Below are positions 8,397 through 42,657 of a stretch of 64,000 nt of DNA, in pieces. The DNA is from Patescibacteria group bacterium. GTDB lineage: Bacteria; Patescibacteriota; Patescibacteriia; Veblenbacterales; UBA10138. Where the stretch lies: positions 34,038 through 98,037 of the forward strand of contig JBAZOT010000002.1 in assembly GCA_041648575.1 (NCBI GenBank), written 5' to 3'. Below the pieces are notes generated by a model that was not told the DNA's origin, did no database searches, and saw only the letters and a list, made by a program, of their open reading frames with translations. Each line of letters starts with the position of its first letter. Position 1 is the first letter of the stretch. The position numbers and the translations under genes were made by a program.

Positions 8397-8686
8397 AAAA
8401 TGCGCACTTGCTCTGTTAAGATGCGATCTTTGAGAAGTGGGTGTAGCGAGCGGTAGGTGACGACATCGATGTTTTTACCGAGCGCTTGCTCCAACTTTAG
8501 TTGCAAGTCGGCCAGATCAAACAGGCTGGTGCCCCGCGGCACCTCAATCAGGAAATCAATATCACTGCCCTCGCCCCCCTCGCCTCGCACATAAGAACCA
8601 AACAGCGAGGAGCGGATAACGCCCGCCTGCCGCAAGATGGGCAGGGCAGTATGTTTAATGGCTTCGATGGTGTAGGAACGAGGCAT
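8393..8686 (-). CDS. mnt: MNT-type nucleotidyltransferase antitoxin (GSxxRG...SDIDxL motif)
   Basis: GSYVRGEGGEGSDIDFLI minimal nucleotidyltransferase motif. 97 aa, immediately upstream of hepT with a 4-nt overlap. Confidence 0.8.
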   Translation of the reverse strand: MPRSYTIEAIKHTALPILRQAGVIRSSLFGSYVRGEGGEGSDIDFLIEVPRGTSLFDLADLQLKLEQALGKNIDVVTYRSLHPLLKDRILTEQVRIL

Positions 8687-9082
8687 AAATATTTAAATCC
8701 TAAATTCTAATGAAAGCTTGGCTTTCACCCCGATCAATATCGGGGTAGTCCGCCATGGCGGACTAAATCCTAAATAATAAATGAAATAATTAATAATTAA
8801 ATCCTAAAATTATAAAATAAATGTTAATTGTTATAATACAGAATTAAGAATAATGAATAAAGAATTATAAATAGTGAATAATGAACATGGGATTTTTTAT
8901 TTATCATCCCGAACCCCTTCCTTTTGTCATTCCGAATTTATTTCGGAATCTATTTTGAGATGCTGAACTAAATTCAACATGACAGTATTCTTTGTTCTTA
9001 CTTAATTAAAGGGCAGGCAGGAATCCTAAACAATAGTTGAAATAATTAATAAGTTAAATTTATGAATTATTGCGCTATAAAA

Positions 9083-12000
9083 TTACTCAATAGCAAAATT
9101 GGCTGTAAAAGTTAAGTTGTTACTAGGCATAGTAAAATTACATGTTGAAACAGTATTATCTCCTCCATCACAAGTAATGCCACTCCAATTTGAAAATGCA
9201 TAAAAATCTGCTGGTACAGCAGTTAAAGAAATAGATGCTCCACTAGCGGCTGATTTTGATATAGTACTACATCTAGTGCCACAAGTGATGCTGGCACTTG
9301 GCAAGCTAATAGAACCACTTACAGAACCTGCTGAAGAAGCTGGCGTTTTACTACCAGTAAGAGTATAGGTAACAACAAAATTAGCTGTGACTGATTTAGG
9401 AGCAGTTCCCATAGTTATAGATACGGGGCTAGTGGTACCACTGGCATCACCACTCCAATTCGAAAATCCATAACCACTATTGGCTGTGGCAGTTAATTGA
9501 ATAACTTCTCCATTAACATATGTATATGAATTAGCAACACAACCTGCGGAGTTGGCCAGACTGACAGCTATGGTACCACCACTTGATGGAAGAACTGACC
9601 TAGTAAGGGCGTAACAGACATTAAACGTTGTTGTCACTGATTTAGCGCTACTCATAGTAACAGTAGTAGGATTGGTTAAATTATTATTAGTACCAGTCCA
9701 ACTGGCGAAAGCATAACCACTAGCTGGTGCAGCTGTTAGTGTCACAGAAGCATTAAGAGTGTATTGCCCTGCTGAACAGCCCGTAGAATTGGCTGGATTG
9801 GCTACAATGGTACCACCGCCAGTAGGACTGACAGAAGTGGTAAGGGTGTAACAAGTAACGGCTGCTGCGCCGGTTACCTGATTTCCTGTGGTTGGGGTTG
9901 ATTTGTAGTTAGTTCCCTGAGCATATCCTGATGTATCTACCGTGCCTTTATATTCGTATACCGCTACATAGTAGGTGGTGCTGGCGGTAAGCCCGGTAAC
10001 TGCTACGCTGGTACCGGTGCCTTTATACATCACGTAATTACCGGTGGTACCAAGCTGCGTGCCACTACCAAATATCGTATTAGCAGTATAAGTAGTATAC
10101 GTGCCGTCTACTGGGTCGGAGTTAACCACCGCGCCTGATTTCATTAATACTATTACTCCGTCGCCGTTGCCGTTGCCGCGAGTCCAATTTACGGTCATAG
10201 TCGTTGAGGTGACAGAAGCAAAACCTACCCCAGTTGCTTGAGTTGATGGCTCGGTATAGAAGCTGCCATCTGAAGAGTAACCTGTACCAGCTGAATTAAT
10301 GGCATATCCTCTATAGTACAAAAGCGTGCCAGCGGTTAATCCTATCCTGGCATCAGTGAAAACGCCAATAGTCCCTGCTCCTTTAGTAGAACAGGTACCA
10401 GTCGTCAGTGTCGGAGCTGGTGCAGTACTCCAGCAGGTTCCATATTGGGTGATAATCGCGCCGCCGGTGGAAGTAATATTGGCGCCTAAGGTAGCTGTGG
10501 TAGAAGTAATAGAAGCGGAGGTAGGTGAACCAATCACAGGAGCGGTAACGGCGGCGGGAGTAGTAGTGAAAGGTTTTACTATGCCGTAATGATAATATGG
10601 CGATAAATTTGGTAAGAACAAATAAGCGCAATAATAGTAAGTTTTATCCGGTTGAAGCGCCAGAGTATCATTACCATCTCCTATTATAGCGTTTTTCTCA
10701 TTAGGTGACTGGCCAAATAACTGATCTCCAATCAAGTTAGCCTTATCAATAACAAGGCTAGGATATGATGAGTGACTTAACGAAGAACAAGAATTATTTA
10801 TACTAGAATACTTAAATTGAGCCGTTGGTGTACCTGAAGCCGCTGGGGTAGTACCATTTAAATTAATTGTACCGCTTAAAGTCACTTGAGTTGATCCTAT
10901 GGTAACAGGATCACCAGTTGTAACAATCGGCGCACCAGGCAACCGGAAAGTAGCAGTAACTGAAGTAGAGCCAGCAACAGTTGTGGTACAAGGGTTAGTA
11001 ATTCCAGTGCAAGCACCTACCCAACCTCCAAAAACAGCTGGGGTAGTCGCGGTGGCGGTTAAGGTTATACTATTACCAAGAGGATAAACATAAGAACAAG
11101 TGCCGGAACTACAATTAACTGTCTGTGGACTATCATTGCTAGTAACTCTACCTGTTCCAGATATAGTTACTGCGAGCGCGCCAGCTTCTGCTTGCCAGCC
11201 GTAGAAAACCATTACACCCTGATTAGTAAAAGCAAAACGATCGGCCGTACCTTGCCACAAGCGCAGTTGGTCTTTATTAGCTACCACCGCATCAGTAGTG
11301 CTGGTGTAAATTCCCCAGTGACTGCTGTCGGAAGTTCCCAAATCAATTTCCGGATTGCCAGTTGATTTAGAAAGATAAATCCTAGGACCCTTGCCAGTCT
11401 CGCCTACTAAACCCAATCTCGTGCCGTCAAAAAAACCAGCAGTACTTGGCGTGGCTGTACCAATGCCCACAATACCAACAAGATTAGCGGAAGTACCTTT
11501 AAAAATATTACTAGTCGTGCCTTCTTGCGTCCACAAGTCACCGGCTCCTATTCCACCCGCGGCCCAGGTTTCAATACAATCAGGGTCGCTACCAGCATCA
11601 GGCCCATCGGGTAAACAATATTTTTTAGCAAAAACGCGTGCATCAAAATAACCAGCCCAAGAAGTAGCATCGGTGGCTAAACCATAAATTGCATAAGCAC
11701 TGGTTTTGTTAGTAGCAGTGCCATAAACAGCATAACTACTGTTAACCCCAGCCACGCCGTAAATTGCATAACTACCAGACCCACTAACCACGCCATACAC
11801 TGCTTTTTCACCAGAGTGGGTTTGAATGGCACTAACTGTCGCATCGCTAATGGGGATTATAGGTGGAACGGCGTTGGAAAAACTACCAGCTGGAGCTAAA
11901 ATATAACTGCCAAAACTCCCAGTTCCCCCAAAACTGCCGCTGCCGGAAATATTTATTTTGCCGTCTTGTAAAACGCCGCTTCCTGTGGGTAATAGCCAAA

Positions 12001-12124
12001 CTGGTCCAGGTAAATTCGGTGTCGGTGGATTTTGGCTTGGATCTTGCCAAGCACCAAATACCCAAGAACCTACCCATAAAAAAGGTAGAGCAATCAAAAA
12101 CGCAATAAATAATCGTTTATTCAT
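9083..12124 (-). CDS. Large (1013 aa) surface protein with N-terminal signal/TM and at least three divergent InlB B-repeat-like domains
   Basis: Repeated ~80-aa units such as CYTLT.SVSP.GGGTI...LTA.PASGYAF..W.G...TNPTTVTM...SVT..F match the InlB B-repeat pattern. Thr/Ser/Gly-rich. Confidence 0.55.
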   Translation of the reverse strand: MNKRLFIAFLIALPFLWVGSWVFGAWQDPSQNPPTPNLPGPVWLLPTGSGVLQDGKINISGSGSFGGTGSFGSYILAPAGSFSNAVPPIIPISDATVSAIQTHSGEKAVYGVVSGSGSYAIYGVAGVNSSYAVYGTATNKTSAYAIYGLATDATSWAGYFDARVFAKKYCLPDGPDAGSDPDCIETWAAGGIGAGDLWTQEGTTSNIFKGTSANLVGIVGIGTATPSTAGFFDGTRLGLVGETGKGPRIYLSKSTGNPEIDLGTSDSSHWGIYTSTTDAVVANKDQLRLWQGTADRFAFTNQGVMVFYGWQAEAGALAVTISGTGRVTSNDSPQTVNCSSGTCSYVYPLGNSITLTATATTPAVFGGWVGACTGITNPCTTTVAGSTSVTATFRLPGAPIVTTGDPVTIGSTQVTLSGTINLNGTTPAASGTPTAQFKYSSINNSCSSLSHSSYPSLVIDKANLIGDQLFGQSPNEKNAIIGDGNDTLALQPDKTYYYCAYLFLPNLSPYYHYGIVKPFTTTPAAVTAPVIGSPTSASITSTTATLGANITSTGGAIITQYGTCWSTAPAPTLTTGTCSTKGAGTIGVFTDARIGLTAGTLLYYRGYAINSAGTGYSSDGSFYTEPSTQATGVGFASVTSTTMTVNWTRGNGNGDGVIVLMKSGAVVNSDPVDGTYTTYTANTIFGSGTQLGTTGNYVMYKGTGTSVAVTGLTASTTYYVAVYEYKGTVDTSGYAQGTNYKSTPTTGNQVTGAAAVTCYTLTTSVSPTGGGTIVANPANSTGCSAGQYTLNASVTLTAAPASGYAFASWTGTNNNLTNPTTVTMSSAKSVTTTFNVCYALTRSVLPSSGGTIAVSLANSAGCVANSYTYVNGEVIQLTATANSGYGFSNWSGDASGTTSPVSITMGTAPKSVTANFVVTYTLTGSKTPASSAGSVSGSISLPSASITCGTRCSTISKSAASGASISLTAVPADFYAFSNWSGITCDGGDNTVSTCNFTMPSNNLTFTANFAIE

Positions 12125-12331
12125 TGTGTATTACAGTTAATTATCATCTAAGATATTAATTCTGCGAATTTTAAGCTAATACTAGACATTATTTAATGCC
12201 TATTTATATTGATTACTTATCTATTATAGCATAAAAATATGCATTAGGCAAGTCTAATTATTAATGTTTTTAGTTTAATAATCTTTTTTTTATGTTATGA
12301 TGTTAATGTATTTACTAACTATAAAAAAATT

Positions 12332-12925
12332 ATGTCTGAATATATCGTTACTAACAAAACCATCGCGCTGATTATTGTGGCAAGTGTTATCATAGCAGCG
12401 ATAGTTGGTTTTATTTGTTATAACCTTGGCTTGTCATATGGTATACAACAAAGGCCAACTGCTAAATCGCAACAACCGCTTGCTGAAATAAACGACTTAC
12501 CCAACCAGCCAGCATCACCAGAAAGCCAGCCAACGGCCGAGCCCAGCGCCGAAGTCGAGGCGGTAGAGATTCCAATTTCCGGAGAACCAGTGGTAAGCGA
12601 AGGTCAAACAATTATCAATGGTAAAGTTAACACCGTAACTGCCAATGGACTAACGGTTGATGTTGATAATGTAACGCTTAATTCCGCAACTGGTAAATAT
12701 ACACAAGCAACTATCACCTATACTGTAACAGTCACTGCTAAAACCAAAATAGTAGAACAGAATTCTACTGTTACTGTTTTACCAGGGCAAGATCCGCAAG
12801 TAACTACCACCTATAAAAATATGAAACTTGGTGATTTACAAGTAGGTGAAAAAATTACTGTTTTTACTGATCAAGAAATTAATACCAAAAGTTTAACAGC
12901 TACTGAAATCCGATTGCTGCCTTAA
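12332..12925 (+). CDS. Hypothetical membrane-anchored protein with Pro/Glu-rich linker and Thr/Val-rich C-terminal domain
   Basis: Single N-terminal TM helix. No recognisable catalytic motif. Confidence 0.35.
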   Translation: MSEYIVTNKTIALIIVASVIIAAIVGFICYNLGLSYGIQQRPTAKSQQPLAEINDLPNQPASPESQPTAEPSAEVEAVEIPISGEPVVSEGQTIINGKVNTVTANGLTVDVDNVTLNSATGKYTQATITYTVTVTAKTKIVEQNSTVTVLPGQDPQVTTTYKNMKLGDLQVGEKITVFTDQEINTKSLTATEIRLLP

Positions 12926-12932
12926 AATATTT

Positions 12933-13022
12933 ATAACACCGTAACACTGTAACAATTTAACACTTTAGCAGTTTGGCACTGTAACAATATAACAGTGTGA
13001 CAATGTAACACTATAACATTAT
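12933..13022. promoter_or_regulatory. Dense array of (T)GTAACA / ATAACA heptamer repeats, with an exact 12-mer cactgtaacaat twice, in the intergenic region upstream of lemA-htpX
   Basis: At least 7 GTAACA/ATAACA/TTAACA occurrences within 90 nt, plus inverted tgtgaca. Located 45-130 nt upstream of the lemA start. Confidence 0.3.
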
Positions 13023-13065
13023 TTATAATTTTATTTTTTAACTTTTAATCTTTAATTTTTATTCT

Positions 13066-13623
13066 ATGACTACACTTTCCTGGATTATACTAATTGTGGT
13101 GGCAATAATTGTTGTTTGGATTATTGCTGCCTACAATCGCTTTATCAGCCTACGCAACCGCTCGCAAGAAGCTTGGAGCGATATTGATGTACAACTAAAA
13201 CGTCGTTACGACTTGATTCCAAATTTAATGGAAACAGTTAAGGGGTATGCTAAGCACGAGGAGGGTGTGTTTACTAAAGTTACTGATGCAAGAACCAAAG
13301 CCATGAGCGCCCAAGGAGCAGCTGCTAAAGGTGAGGCGGAAAACATGTTAACAGAAACTTTAAAGAGTTTATTCGCGGTAGCGGAAAATTATCCCGATCT
13401 TAAGGCCAGCGCCAATTTTGCCAAACTGCAAGACGAACTGTCGGATACGGAAAATAAAATTCAAGCAGCGCGCCGCTTTTACAACGGCCTAGTACGCGAC
13501 TTTAATACCGCGGTGCAAGTCTTTCCTTCTAATATTATTGCCAACTTGTTTCGCTTTACGGCGCGAGAATTCTTTGAGCTGGAAAACGAAGCTGAAAAGC
13601 AAAATGTGAAAGTTGCGTTTTAG
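13066..13623 (+). CDS. lemA: LemA family protein
   Basis: N-terminal TM. LemA-like sequence (…[24 protein letters not shown]…) and the typical pairing with htpX downstream. Confidence 0.75.
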
Positions 13624-13693
13624 AATAAGTAGTTATGAGTAAGGAATCATGAATATTCTTTATTCGTGATTCTTAATTCTTGATTCAGTATTT

Positions 13694-14593
13694 ATGTATA
13701 ACCAAATAGCCAGCAACAAAAGGAAAACTATTCTGCTAATTATTGTGTTTGTGGCAGTAATTTTTGGCTTGGCTTGGGGCTTGGCTGGTTTTTATGGTGA
13801 GGAATATTATATATATTTTCCGCTGGCTATTATAATTTCGGTCGTTATGACTTTGGTTTCATATTTTTCCAGTGACAAGGTTGCTTTAAAAATGTCTGCA
13901 GCTCGGGGTCCGGTTTCTAAAGAAGAAAACGCTTATGTTTATAGAATGGTAGAGAATCTTTGTATTACTGCTGGGCTCCCCTTGCCCAAAATTTATTTAA
14001 TTGACTCCCCGGCTATTAATGCTTTTGCTTGCGGGCGTAATCCCCAGCATTCATCTATTGCTTTAACGCACGGCGCTATAGAAAAGTTAACCAATGAAGA
14101 GCTAGAAGGGGTAATTGCTCATGAATTATCGCATGTAAAAAACTATGACATTTTAGTGATGACCATAATAATTATTTTAGTGGGAATAATAACCATTGTA
14201 ACTGATATTTTTTTTAGATCGCAGTTGTATGGCCGTGGCTTACATCGCAGTAGTAGTAATAATCGCGGCGGTAATCCTTTAATGCTAATCGGCTTTGTTT
14301 TAATGATTCTTTCTCCAATTATTGCCCAACTTATAAAACTCGCTATCTCGCGCAAACGTGAATTTTTAGCTGATGCTTCGGGCTCGCTATTAACGCGCTA
14401 CCCCGAAGGGCTAGCTAGGGCGTTGGAAAAAATCCGCGACGATAGTAACCAGTTAGAAAAAGTTTCAGAAGCCACTGCTCATTTATTTATTTCCAGCCCA
14501 CTAAAAGGCAAAACATTGGCCCGACTTTTTTCCACCCATCCCCCACTCGAAGAAAGAATTCAAGCATTACGTCAAATGGGTAATATAAAATAA
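13694..14593 (+). CDS. htpX: Zinc metalloprotease HtpX (M48 family)
   Basis: HELSH zinc-binding motif (AHELSHVKN), multiple TM segments, ~300 aa. Follows lemA. Confidence 0.85.
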   Translation: MYNQIASNKRKTILLIIVFVAVIFGLAWGLAGFYGEEYYIYFPLAIIISVVMTLVSYFSSDKVALKMSAARGPVSKEENAYVYRMVENLCITAGLPLPKIYLIDSPAINAFACGRNPQHSSIALTHGAIEKLTNEELEGVIAHELSHVKNYDILVMTIIIILVGIITIVTDIFFRSQLYGRGLHRSSSNNRGGNPLMLIGFVLMILSPIIAQLIKLAISRKREFLADASGSLLTRYPEGLARALEKIRDDSNQLEKVSEATAHLFISSPLKGKTLARLFSTHPPLEERIQALRQMGNIK

Positions 14594-17806: not shown

Positions 17807-18672
17807 ATGATTGATTTGCACCTCCATTCTAGTTATTCTGATGGTATTTTGAATATAAAAGAATTATCCAAAAAAATTGTTAACGCTGGTATTTGTTACT
17901 GTTCCATTACGGATCATGATAATATTGATGGCGTTGATGAAATGGCTGATATTTTGCAGAAAAGCAAAGTTTATTTTATTAATGGGGTAGAGCTTTCCAC
18001 GCTGTACAAAAATCAAGAAGTTCATCTATTGATATATAATTTTAATTTACCGGCGGCAAAAAAATTATTCAAGAAAGAAACAGATTGGTTGAGAGCGAAA
18101 AAATTAAAGAATTAAAAGTGGCAATTGAATTATTTAAAAAACAGGGATTTGTGATAGACAATTCATTAATTCCAGAATCTAAAAAACCCATTGGCTTTAC
18201 CGTAGCTAAGAATATCTACCATAACAAAGAAACTCAAAAACTTTTGATTAAAAAACACGGCCACCTTCTCAATAAGCAGGAATTTTTTGATTATTATCAA
18301 GCTAAAGGCAGGCCATGTTACACCCCAAGAAGTGGAGTTAATGTAGCTTGGATACTTAAAAAATTTAACAATATAAGTAAGGACATTATTTTAGCACACC
18401 CTTTTACACCTGTTAGTTTCGTAATAAAACCATTAGAAGATAAGGATATTTATGATTTAATAAAAAAAGGAATTACAGGAATAGAAATTTATTACAAAAA
18501 TACTCCCCCTAAAAAAATTAGACTGCTGGAAAAAATTGTGAAGAAAAACAAACTTTTTTATACTGGCGGATCAGATTCACATGGTAAAAGTAATGATACT
18601 TCATTAGGTTATTATAATAATAATTCTAAAATACCTAGTTTTAGGTTAAGTAATTTAAGCTATAAAATATAA
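17807..18672 (+). CDS. PHP-domain metal-dependent phosphoesterase, split into two overlapping ORFs (17807..18115 and 18085..18672) by an apparent frameshift in an A-run
   Basis: N-terminal ORF has the PHP motif (DLHLHSSYSDG…ITDHDN). The C-terminal ORF has the rest (ILAHPF…GGSDSHG). The frames switch near gcgaaaaaattaaag. This is either a genuine pseudogene or a homopolymer sequencing error. Confidence 0.55.
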
Positions 18673-18730
18673 ATCAAAGGGATAGTGGTGGAGTAACATA
18701 TTTTTCACTACTTTTATTATTTTTTTATTA

Positions 18731-19100
18731 GAGGCAGGGGACTCGGAGTTGCGAAGGCCGTCCCCTACCCCTAACAACTCCACCCCTGCCACGCTATTTT
18801 ATAACGCCTATTCAGCCAAACAAACTTGCTATGCCAAGCGGCCGACACACGCAAGTTCTTGTTGCTTCACTACGGCGTTATTAATAAAAAACTGCCAGCA
18901 TTGCGAAAGGTCAGCTCACGGTGCGGTACCTGAGCGAACGTTAAACTGGCGCGTGTTTTGTCCTTGTAGCATAGCGCCAGTAGTGAGCGAAGGTGGCACT
19001 GTCTGACCTGAAGCACTAGCTGGCGATTCTTTCTGCCATTTCTTTTAAAGAAATGGCAAAGAGTGTTTCTTAAAAAAGGTAACAAAGTACTTTTAATAAA
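18731..19100 (+). ncRNA. Candidate structured non-coding element, copy A; homologous ends and hairpin covariation with copy B at 42203..42470
   Basis: The 5' ~75 nt and 3' ~40 nt are conserved with copy B. A 5' hairpin and an 11-bp 3' hairpin are kept by compensatory substitutions. The 85- and 109-aa ORFs inside have no protein-like features. Strand is not determined. Confidence 0.35.
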
Positions 19101-19134
19101 TGCCAAAAAATAATAAAAATGATAATATAAAAAA

Positions 19135-19978: not shown

Positions 19979-20184
19979 GGAGGCGTGCCCGAGTCCCCGA
20001 ACTAGAACATAGTTCAGTACGGGGCATGGGTTGAAGGGGACGGTCTTATCACCCTACGGGTGATCTCCCGAAGGGAGAAAAACATTTACAAAATTCACGG
20101 TGGGGTCGCATAGTGGTTTAGTGCACCGGTCTTGTCACCCTACAGGTGATCTCCCGAAGGGAGAAAAACATTCACAAAATTCAC
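19979..20184 (+). repeat. Array of tRNA 5'-half fragments, each fused to a conserved ~55-nt two-hairpin element; 86-bp tandem period (units at 20042 and 20128)
   Basis: Fragment X1 (19979..~20045) resembles the tRNA-Ser(TGA) 5' half through the anticodon loop, with a 30-nt hairpin inserted in the D-loop. Fragment X2 (20099..~20130) is a type-I tRNA 5' half. Each is followed by (a/g)tcaccctac(g/a)ggtgatctcccgaagggagaaaaacatt(t/c)acaaaattcacgg. No matching 3' halves are present. Confidence 0.5.
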
Positions 20185-20275
20185 GGTGGGGTGGCCGAGC
20201 GGTTGAAGGCGACAGTCTTGAAAACTGTTATACCTCAAAAAGGTATCGCGAGTTCGAATCTCGCCCCCACCGCCA
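20185..20275 (+). tRNA. tRNA-Ser (anticodon TGA), class II with long variable arm, CCA encoded
   Basis: Acceptor stem ggtgggg/ccccacc. Anticodon stem acagt/actgt with loop cttgaaa. T-arm gagttcgaatctc. 3' terminal gcca. Confidence 0.88.
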
Positions 20276-20288
20276 AAAATAAAGATAT

Positions 20289-20378
20289 GGAGAGGTGGCT
20301 GAGCGGTCTAAAGCAACAGGTTGCTAACCTGTGACCCTTTACCGGGTCCCGTGGGTTCGAATCCCACCCTCTCCGCCA
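20289..20378 (+). tRNA. tRNA-Ser (anticodon GCT), class II, CCA encoded
   Basis: Acceptor stem ggagagg/cctctcc. Anticodon stem acagg/cctgt with loop ttgctaa. T-arm gggttcgaatccc. 3' gcca. Confidence 0.88.
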
Positions 20379-25845: not shown

Positions 25846-25862
25846 TAAATAGACTATCCGCT

Positions 25863-25892
25863 AAAACAGGGCTACAAACCCTGTTTTGTTTT
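25863..25892 (+). terminator. Rho-independent terminator (aaaacagggctacaaaccctgtttt + T-tract); near-identical copy at 32056..32086
   Basis: Perfect 9-bp stem, 6-nt loop and a T-run, immediately after the protease stop. Confidence 0.55.
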
Positions 25893-25928
25893 AAGGCTTT
25901 GTTAATAATGGGACTTACACGGTTAGGT

Positions 25929-26013
25929 GTCATTGCGAGCGCAAGCGAAGCAATCTCTGGTTGATGCTAGTGTTTTATTAAGATTACTTCGTCGCTTGAC
26001 TCCTCGCAATGAC
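25929..26013. repeat. Small palindromic repeat element bounded by inverted 11-mers gtcattgcgag / ctcgcaatgac, with internal cgaagcaatct motif
   Basis: Terminal inverted repeat. Related copies or fragments at 1384..1440, 2745..2817 (in-frame inside the T9SS C-terminal domain) and 15191..15235. Confidence 0.5.
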
Positions 26014-26217
26014 GCAGAGTAGGCCAAACGCGAAAGTCCTAAAATAAATTATTTTTAAAGAAATATATGTGAATTAAAACCTCCACCCCATCCCCTAGTG
26101 TTGCTGGGAGCGCTTGCCTGTTACCCAAAAATAGTAAACTAAACATAATTGATATAAAATAGTATAAGATGATAAGCTACATTAATTCGCTGCTGACTTA
26201 ATTTGAAAACTATCTAA

Positions 26218-42150: not shown

Positions 42151-42202
42151 ACGTTAAGTATAACATATTCTTTTATTATTTTTTTATAACAATCTTTTAT
42201 TA

Positions 42203-42470
42203 GGGGTAGAGGGCTCAGAGTTGCGAAGCCCGCCCTCTACCCCTAACAACCCCACACCTGGCACGCTATTTACAAAAATGCCACCATCGCAAGGATCAGT
42301 AAGCGGCACGGAAGGGTGGCGAATGACTGGGCTCGCCCGTGTTTTGGTCCTCTGCGCATGGGGCGAGCCAATGAGCCACCCGAGTACCACCTAATCCGAA
42401 GCGTCTGTGTGGCGACTTTTTGGTTACCTTTTCTTAGAAAAGGTAACAAAGTATTTCTAAAATAAATATA
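42203..42470 (+). ncRNA. Candidate structured non-coding element, copy B (homolog of 18731..19100), in the region upstream of rpsF
   Basis: 5' hairpin ggggtagagggc…gccctctacccc and 3' hairpin gttaccttttc-tta-gaaaaggtaac. The ends are conserved with copy A and the middle is divergent. The 68-aa ORF inside has no protein-like features. Confidence 0.35.
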
Positions 42471-42657
42471 ACTACTTGCTTTATTTTTACCTATTTGCTA
42501 AGATACTAATACTTAAAAGCGCCCAATTTAGAGGCGCGCCATACCCCGACTTATCGGGGTTCCTATCAGTCCTACTTGGGCATAGATAGGAGCTAAACTA
42601 AATATCGGACGCTATTTTGTTTATGACTAACTTAACTTTTTAATCACCAAATTTCAT

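Follow-up and report, generated by a model that had tools for sequence, protein, structure and literature searches.

Copies A and B, two intergenic regions of the stretch of DNA that was analysed (64,000 nt, hereafter the window), are paralogues of one structured element. The element consists of three serial hairpin modules, M1, M2 (optional) and M3, followed by a U-rich tract and an AU-rich hairpin, T. The two copies represent a real, apparently undescribed family of modular structured RNA that, judging from the genomes and metagenomes scanned, apparently occurs only in a few related Patescibacteria. They are tentatively regarded, at a little under an even chance, as genes of one lineage-restricted family of stand-alone structured RNAs in which M1 is the recognition module. 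Overall, the element is classed as an RNP-type or regulatory small RNA and not as a riboswitch, a ribozyme of a known class, a transposon or a coding gene.

Both loci flagged in a preliminary description of this DNA were confirmed in place, copy A at 18728-19060 and copy B at 42200-42447. They have in common a 33-nt core, GAGTTGCGAAGNCCGNCCNCTACCCCTAACAAC, which occurs exactly twice in the window (18746-18778 and 42218-42250, both on the + strand; expected count 0.00 in 100 shuffles), and comparison of either copy with the rest of the window gave no match elsewhere. The 5' stems quoted earlier (ggggtagagggc/gccctctacccc in copy B and aggggac/gtcccct in copy A) are present, as are the quoted 11-bp 3' stems (gttaccttttc/gaaaaggtaac in copy B and tgccatttctt/aagaaatggca in copy A). 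The latter are homologous: in the seven copies compared, UUUUC-UWA-GAAAA at the centre does not change, and all changes in the outer 6-7 bp are compensated. The two copies had been described as sharing their ends around a divergent middle; this does not hold, as A and B can be aligned end to end over their entire length, with homology reaching also ~35 nt upstream into the AT-rich flank. Copy A is indeed longer, although the extra sequence, put at ~100 nt before, is one discrete inserted hairpin of ~80 nt (M2) that is absent from copy B. The end-segment aaaaggtaacaaagta is found in both copies, but as the 3' arm of the terminal hairpin in B and downstream of A's own terminal hairpin in A. The reported compensatory changes were verified, 17 of the 54 predicted pairs differing on both sides between A and B with pairing kept. 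Both regions are islands of 45-50% GC within DNA of ~30% GC, and both fold far better than shuffled sequences (z = -5.9 and -5.7).

Copy A is located downstream of ClpC, between a PHP-domain gene and ComF, and copy B between a Trm11-like methyltransferase gene and the rpsF-ssb-rpsR-efp cluster, which are divergently transcribed. The PHP-domain gene that precedes copy A (window 17807-18672) is broken into two ORFs, of 102 aa and 195 aa, that overlap. The second ORF shares 82% identity with residues 94-288 of the PHP protein of the relative L022, which is intact (288 aa). This is a frameshift, which makes the gene a pseudogene or else points to an assembly error. The rpsF (S6) leader (window 42512-42657) has its own promoter-like TTGC..-TAAGAT and three hairpins kept in four relatives, with 5 pairs altered on both sides. 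No Rfam S6:S18 leader reaches threshold in this interval, which probably represents an S6:S18 autoregulatory leader that lacks a model and is distinct from copy B.

Homologues were sought by pattern scans for the M1 core. A first genome scan with A/B-specific bases gave no match; a relaxed pattern succeeded, yielding copies L008, L009/L012, L010, L013 and L014 from JGI metagenomes and L017, L018 and L019 (the last two from Patescibacteria UBA10001) from GTDB genomes. Six further independent copies from related genomes and metagenomes were available for comparison. The copy in L028/L029 was found by ClpC synteny, independently of the search pattern; in its M1, a U-A pair at the helix base is replaced by C-G and the loop has one extra nucleotide. 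The same route through ClpC homologues led to a decayed copy in L021. Pattern matches in Cyclobacterium, L011 and L020 (a viral contig) lie in coding sequence and were discarded as chance matches. A search of 244 kb of related loci with nhmmer and covariance models returned no copies beyond the decayed one in L021, scans of viral contigs with the M1 and M2 patterns returned chance matches only, and blastn against phage and plasmid sequences returned no match. Genomes that carry the element contain one or two copies, with two in UBA10001 and one in the L017 genome when whole GTDB genomes were scanned. The ClpC proteins of L017 and L028 are 67% and 70% identical to that of the window, respectively. 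The L017 contig (CAZMMW010000001.1) is labelled 'uncultured Gammaproteobacteria bacterium', yet it has a Patescibacteria-like ClpC and a copy of the RNA, and the bin label is probably wrong.

The modules occur in several combinations. The M1-M2-M3-T order of copy A was also found in L010/L014/L019, L017 and L028, and copy B is M1-M3-T. L009/L018 and L013 comprise M1-M2 and then an ORF, and L008 comprises M1 and a miniature M3. The L021 copy has half of M2, an M3 with an apical insertion of ~110 nt, and T, but no M1. The coordinates of the features of copies A and B are listed in Table 1.

Table 1. Features of copies A and B in the window.
Feature	Position	Strand	Details
Copy A, promoter-like site GTAACA-16-TATTAT	18693..18720	+	Consensus scan, 9/12 matches; ends 7 nt before M1; weak in AT-rich DNA
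Copy A, M1	18728..18794	+	CM R1 88.8 bits
Copy A, M1 P1	18728-18742 paired with 18760-18774	+	Internal loop UCGGA/CC
Copy A, M1 P1b	18748-18750 paired with 18755-18757	+	GCGA tetraloop 18751-18754
Copy A, M1 C-rich tail CAACUCCACCCCUGCCACGC	18775-18794	+	
Copy A, M2 (not in B)	18802..18880	+	Stem UAACGCC/GGCGUUA; conserved CCAAACRAA; apical loop UAUGC...AACACG
Copy A, M3	18893..19025	+	Base stem UGCCAGC/GCUGGCG; GRA/GAA internal loop; apical loop UUUUGUCCUUGUA; CM R2 135.7 bits
Copy A, U-rich tract AUUCUUUCU and hairpin T (UGCCAUUUCUU / AAGAAAUGGCA)	19026..19060	+	
Copy A, 3' flank common to B (AAAAGGTAACAAAGTAYTT..ATAAAT)	19061..19101	+	B 281-318 aligns with 19066-19101 at 87%
Copy B, M1	42200..42266	+	P1 42200-42214 paired with 42232-42246; CM R1 104.5 bits
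Copy B, M1 loop UCAGAGUUGCGAAGCCC	42215-42231	+	
Copy B, M1 tail CAACCCCACACCUGGCACGC	42247-42266	+	
Copy B, M3, directly after M1 (no M2)	42279..42414	+	Base stem UGCCACC/GUGUGGCG; CM R2 131 bits
Copy B, U-rich tract ACUUUUU, T and shared flank to ATAAAT	42415..42467	+	
Copy B, hairpin T (GGUUACCUUUUC UUA GAAAAGGUAAC)	42422-42447	+	

M1 (~67 nt) is built on a very stable, GC-rich helix of 15-16 bp, P1, with an asymmetric UCRRA/CC internal loop; its upper part is formed by a 3-bp helix, P1b (G-C, U.G, U-A), and a GCGA tetraloop, and the helix is followed by the single-stranded C-rich tail CAACCCCNCNCCNRSCACGC. Pairing is kept in 97.9% of cells and 4 of the 18 pairs are changed on both sides, compared with 1.3 in shuffles, in a covariation set of about eight independent sequences, several of which were found with a pattern fixing 20 M1 positions. 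M2 is a hairpin of ~80 nt with the outer stem AAACGCC/GGCGUUU and 20 pairs (92.5% of cells paired), 8 of them changed on both sides compared with 3.3 in shuffles (0/500). M3 is an irregular hairpin of ~135 nt with six helices, a GRA/GAA internal loop, purine-rich internal loops and a conserved apical loop, its overall geometry being that of an interrupted closing stem of ~27 bp, an internal loop of 10 x 6 nt and an apical stem-loop; 91.2% of the cells of its 38 pairs are paired and 15 pairs are changed on both sides, compared with 5.7±1.7 in shuffles (0/500). When the pairing partners were slid, 26-60% of cells were paired (26-40% for M3), compared with 91-98% for the real modules. Compensatory changes above controls, the generic criterion for a conserved structured RNA, were thus found in all three modules, each exceeding the shuffles (0-1/500), and the earlier proposal of a structured RNA under selection for pairing is supported by homologues that add such changes well beyond both kinds of control. 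The outer stem of hairpin T is likewise fully compensated among copies. T differs from a canonical terminator in that the U-tract precedes the hairpin. The 3' flank of copy A looks like the leftover 3' half of a B-type T hairpin.

Several further pairings and motifs were considered. A pseudoknot between GUUG of the M1 loop and CAAC of the tail has no support, the bases being invariant in 7/8 copies; in L028, GUUG is interrupted by an extra A that follows GUU, which fits GUU as part of P1b. An alternative helix between the tail and the 5' strand of P1 was rejected, as it amounts to 8 bp in copy A and only 3-5 bp elsewhere, without compensation. An rrn boxA-like reading of CCCCUAACAA is noted only in passing, its bases being paired inside P1. 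A CIRCE operator was rejected, having only TTAG/CTAA in common with the element, and base-pairing potential between the 16S 3' end and the M3 loop or T is not kept among copies.

The transcribed strand is probably the + strand of the window, with good but incomplete confidence. When the model pairs are read on this strand, G.U cells outnumber A.C cells by 39 to 15, including four invariant wobbles, although the two are balanced (13 vs 15) when only variable pairs are counted. The tetraloop is of the GNRA type on the + strand, and unpaired positions are purine-rich on it (A 202 vs U 146 overall; 208 purines vs 125 pyrimidines in M3). A promoter-like site precedes copy A (Table 1) and a -10-like A/T hexamer is located 4-9 nt before the hairpin in most copies, but an equally good promoter-like site faces copy A from the downstream side. 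As signs of a gene of its own, these sites and the U-tract after the M3 base stem are weak in AT-rich DNA. Folding energies are equal on both strands and did not separate them.

Constraint is distributed unevenly over the modules. M1 is 74-95% identical among all copies, whereas the ClpC proteins of the hosts are only 67-70% identical; M3 is 55-64% identical, except for L028 against L019 (88%). Between A and B the values are 85% for M1 and 58% for M3. L028 is a mosaic, with an M1 91% identical to that of B, an M2 95% identical to that of L013 (68% to that of L019) and an M3 88% identical to that of L019, and the modules are therefore considered to fold and evolve independently and to have been exchanged between paralogues. 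On these comparisons, M1 appears to be under selection for its primary sequence, and M2 and M3 appear to be selected mainly for shape; the sequence of M1 and its tail seems to be held about as strictly as that of a tRNA. Because of this constraint, M1 and the tail are proposed as a recognition module, which would be bound by a conserved putative partner, with a protein as the likeliest candidate and an RNA as another possibility. The element would be a stand-alone transcript from the + strand and not a regulator of the flanking genes, M2 and M3 would act as scaffold or cargo, as the pattern of constraint and the context suggest, and independently folding modules would be swapped or lost between paralogues. 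A bolder reading, to which only a modest chance is given, sees M1 as a novel type of portable functional RNA module that cells combine with differing structured cargoes (M2, M3) or with mRNAs, for example as the handle of a Patescibacteria-specific ribonucleoprotein or as a new catalytic or processing element; if true, it would constitute a new class of modular RNA and not one more regulatory sRNA.

The genomic context bears on whether the element acts on its neighbours. At the ClpC-ComF site it is on the + strand in the window and on the - strand in L028 and L021, and in L017 it is on the - strand just downstream of ClpC. Other sites are after dnaK (L008, L013), after rplT (L009) and between methyltransferase and RNase HII genes (L019). 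Four of the nine loci (L017, L019, L021, L028) face the 3' end of the next gene, and the next genes at the remaining loci, that of L008 excepted, are ComF, rpsF, an RNase T-like exonuclease gene and a DUF3467 gene. The full-length element is therefore not a leader, and the paralogous cis-leader suggested in the preliminary description fails for full-length copies. The L028 element has the opposite orientation to copy A and leaves only 16 and 15 nt of the ClpC-ComF spacer free at its two ends; its promoter would therefore overlap the coding sequence of a neighbour. Four relatives are without any copy between ClpC and ComF (L022, L024, L025, L027), and five loci from four relatives are without B between the methyltransferase gene and rpsF (L002/L003, L005, L007, L026), the 'empty' site of L007 retaining a T-like remnant.

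The main rival to a stand-alone RNA, considered unlikely, holds that M1, alone or together with M2, works in cis at the 5' end of whatever follows, M3 being just one possible cargo, and that it provides properties such as 5' exonuclease protection, an RNase III-type processing site, or protein-dependent attenuation or antitermination. It is kept alive by the M1-M2 copies of L009/L018 and L013: an ORF on the same strand (RNase T-like exonuclease or DUF3467) comes directly after each of them, within 55-75 nt, which fits a cis role of M1. The constant presence of M1 as the first and the sole constant module, its position ~15 nt after the dnaK stop in L008 and L013, and the 30 nt that separate the end of copy A from ComF point the same way. 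M1 also resembles the 5'-terminal stabiliser hairpins of Gram-positive bacteria and RNase III processing hairpins of the phage T7 type in its shape (long helix, asymmetric internal loop, short helix), in being very stable and in its position at the start of the unit or just after an upstream gene. However, such hairpins are defined by shape and need no near-invariant sequence, loop and tail, the downstream genes have no common function, and the four copies facing a convergent gene are followed only by its 3' end. The rpsF gene after copy B, moreover, has its own promoter and leader, conserved in relatives without B. There is also no covarying terminator/antiterminator alternative, the tail-loop and tail-P1 pairings being without compensation; a riboswitch or cis-regulatory leader was rejected on this ground and for want of a common functional theme downstream. 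The second rival, a selfish element, had also been raised in the preliminary description and is judged improbable. The copies would then be a non-autonomous mobile non-coding element or its decaying remains, with hairpins recognised as ssDNA or RNA by a transposase or recombinase encoded elsewhere. The presence/absence polymorphism at both sites, the opposite orientations at the same locus, the truncated and decayed copies (with a stray CTACCCCTAACAA beside that of L021) and the mosaic modules speak for it, as does the G.U/A.C balance at variable pairs, which is expected if only Watson-Crick complementarity matters. The hairpin-rich, non-coding character, the polymorphism and the occurrence in both orientations are shared with MITEs and IS200-IS605-derived palindromes. 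Every defining mark of such elements is nevertheless missing: terminal inverted repeats and target-site duplications are lacking in the flanks, which were read directly; there are only one or two copies per genome and no multiple near-identical ones; and no transposase, integrase or reverse transcriptase gene is present in the window or adjoining any copy. Furthermore, no copy was found in the phage, plasmid or viral contigs searched, the paralogues are old and divergent, as the low M3 identity of A and B indicates, with a fold under purifying selection, and the remnant in L007 suggests loss and not insertion.

Two other readings carry far less weight than the stand-alone family. That the element is a highly divergent housekeeping RNA missed by the Rfam models in this clade, with M3 as a 6S RNA being the best candidate, is very improbable. 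M3 is long, irregular and mostly double-stranded, its interrupted closing stem, internal loop and apical stem-loop recall the 6S fold, and there are one or two paralogues per genome; 6S RNA sequences are notorious for their divergence, and in Bacillus there are two 6S RNAs. Against this, no 6S, SRP, RNase P or tmRNA match was obtained even at E<=10 and no tmRNA by ARAGORN, and the largest internal loop of M3 (~10 x 6 nt) is far below the 6S central bubble (about 13-17 x 10-14 nt), with a helical length of ~45 bp compared with ~75. The near-invariant 5' module M1, like M2, has no counterpart in 6S RNA, and absence from close relatives together with truncated copies would be unexpected for an essential RNA. 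A cause of conservation other than RNA structure is barely credible and already largely refuted. A small protein translated from the UUG in the M1 loop could be argued from the ORFs that start at 18749 and 42221 and from tail variation falling partly at every third base, and a palindromic DNA operator from P1, a near-perfect 2 x 15 bp palindrome. However, the 1-nt insertion of L028 falls just after the UUG and breaks its frame, indels between copies are not multiples of three, stops vary and the predicted peptides end after 17 to 85 residues; the 17-nt spacer and the asymmetric tail, moreover, are no less conserved than the arms. G.U pairs in P1 (L008, L019) and the covariation of M2 and M3 as helices also speak against such a cause.

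Among the three natures suggested in the preliminary description, a lineage-specific sRNA family is the best fit, and the Rfam search that it called for assigned neither copy to any known family (Rfam 15, gathering thresholds and E<=10). Over the whole window, Rfam 15 reported only two tRNA-Ser; at E<=10, A, B and four homologous loci gave scattered sub-threshold microRNA and sRNA noise, none of it recurring across copies. ARAGORN called only tRNA-Ser(TGA) and tRNA-Ser(GCT) in the window, at 20185-20378. A literature search, which included sequence strings, returned nothing relevant to the element. No Rfam match was obtained to known self-cleaving ribozymes (twister, hammerhead, HDV-like, pistol, hatchet), and twister, HDV-like and pistol readings of M1 were rejected on the evidence that P1 is one continuous covarying helix. 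M1 has the words AAGCCCG, GUGGAGGG and CCUAAC in common with twister; they lie inside the continuous covarying 15-bp helix and are therefore incompatible with the loops of twister. A DGR template or retron ncRNA was dismissed, there being no window ORF of at least 100 aa with a YxDD motif and no repeat partner. No consistent target emerged when duplex energies were scanned over 50 start regions of the window.

Two described groups of RNAs show a more general likeness. The raiA motif RNA (RF03072), like similar orphan structured RNAs of low-GC Gram-positives, is also a GC-rich, heavily structured, stand-alone RNA of ~200-350 nt in AT-rich genomes. raiA RNAs are located near comFC, and copy A, L028 and L021 adjoin ComF. 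In contrast to the pseudoknotted core of raiA, the element consists of three serial hairpins; it gave no raiA match even at E<=10, belongs to another phylum and lies upstream and not downstream of ComF. The C-rich-motif sRNAs of the RsaE/RoxS type (Firmicutes) similarly have an unpaired C-rich stretch right after a 5' hairpin in a low-GC organism, and that of the element could pair with G-rich ribosome-binding sites. However, there is no sequence or structural homology, the element is three to four times longer and its tail varies at alternate positions.

The element is of moderate to high relevance to RNA biology and to work on the candidate phyla radiation. A large part of bacterial diversity belongs to the Patescibacteria (CPR), whose genomes are tiny and contain few known regulators and whose non-coding RNAs are almost unstudied. 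An RNA of 250-350 nt under strong structural selection is expensive in a genome of roughly 1 Mb and is therefore probably important. The three modules and their alignments provide ready-made covariance models for a survey of the phylum and defined constructs for assays, and M1, if it is a portable recognition or processing module, would be a useful tool for organisms that are still hard to manipulate.

Additional observations were made at the related loci. The closest relative is L021, with 86% identity in ClpC; between ClpC and ComF it has a spacer of 2.2 kb (11700-13920), which contains the decayed RNA copy, a TehB-like methyltransferase gene and a GC-rich ORF fragment of 105 aa. This fragment has no Pfam match, and its C-terminus appears to resemble the end of a DGR variable protein. 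A second, different GC-rich structured region of the same spacer (13590-13860, z = -5.3) has two hairpins capped by AUGCCAAGCAU loops and ends in GTGGCGA and a T-like hairpin; the two T-like hairpins of L021 are inverted copies flanking the whole insert. The stray CTACCCCTAACAA stands alone at 11745-11757, just beyond the T hairpin. It matches exactly the 3' side of M1 of both window copies and may have been left behind by a neighbouring copy or by a rearranged one. In L009 (3337-4065) and L018 (1427-2155), a mechanical ORF of 242 aa runs in frame through M1-M2 into the RNase T-like exonuclease gene; the likely start of the latter is the ATG at L009 3544, and automatic callers could misannotate the fusion.

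Elsewhere in the window, the GC-rich interval 19980-20184, immediately upstream of the two tRNA-Ser genes, contains two direct repeats of ~85 nt (GGTCTTRTCACCCTACRGGTGATCTCCCGAAGGGAGAAAAACATTYACAAAATTCAC), each preceded by a piece resembling the 5' half of a tRNA (GGAGGCGTGCCCGAG..., GGTGGGGTCGCATAGTGGTTTAGTGCACCGG). Neither ARAGORN nor Rfam called a tRNA in these pieces, which may be tRNA fragments from integration events; a DUF4238 gene is located downstream of the two tRNA-Ser genes. Three long intergenic gaps (1087-1545, 8397-9082 and 25846-26217) have a GC content of 0.37-0.40, compared with a background of ~0.30, and could contain further non-coding RNAs or missed small genes.
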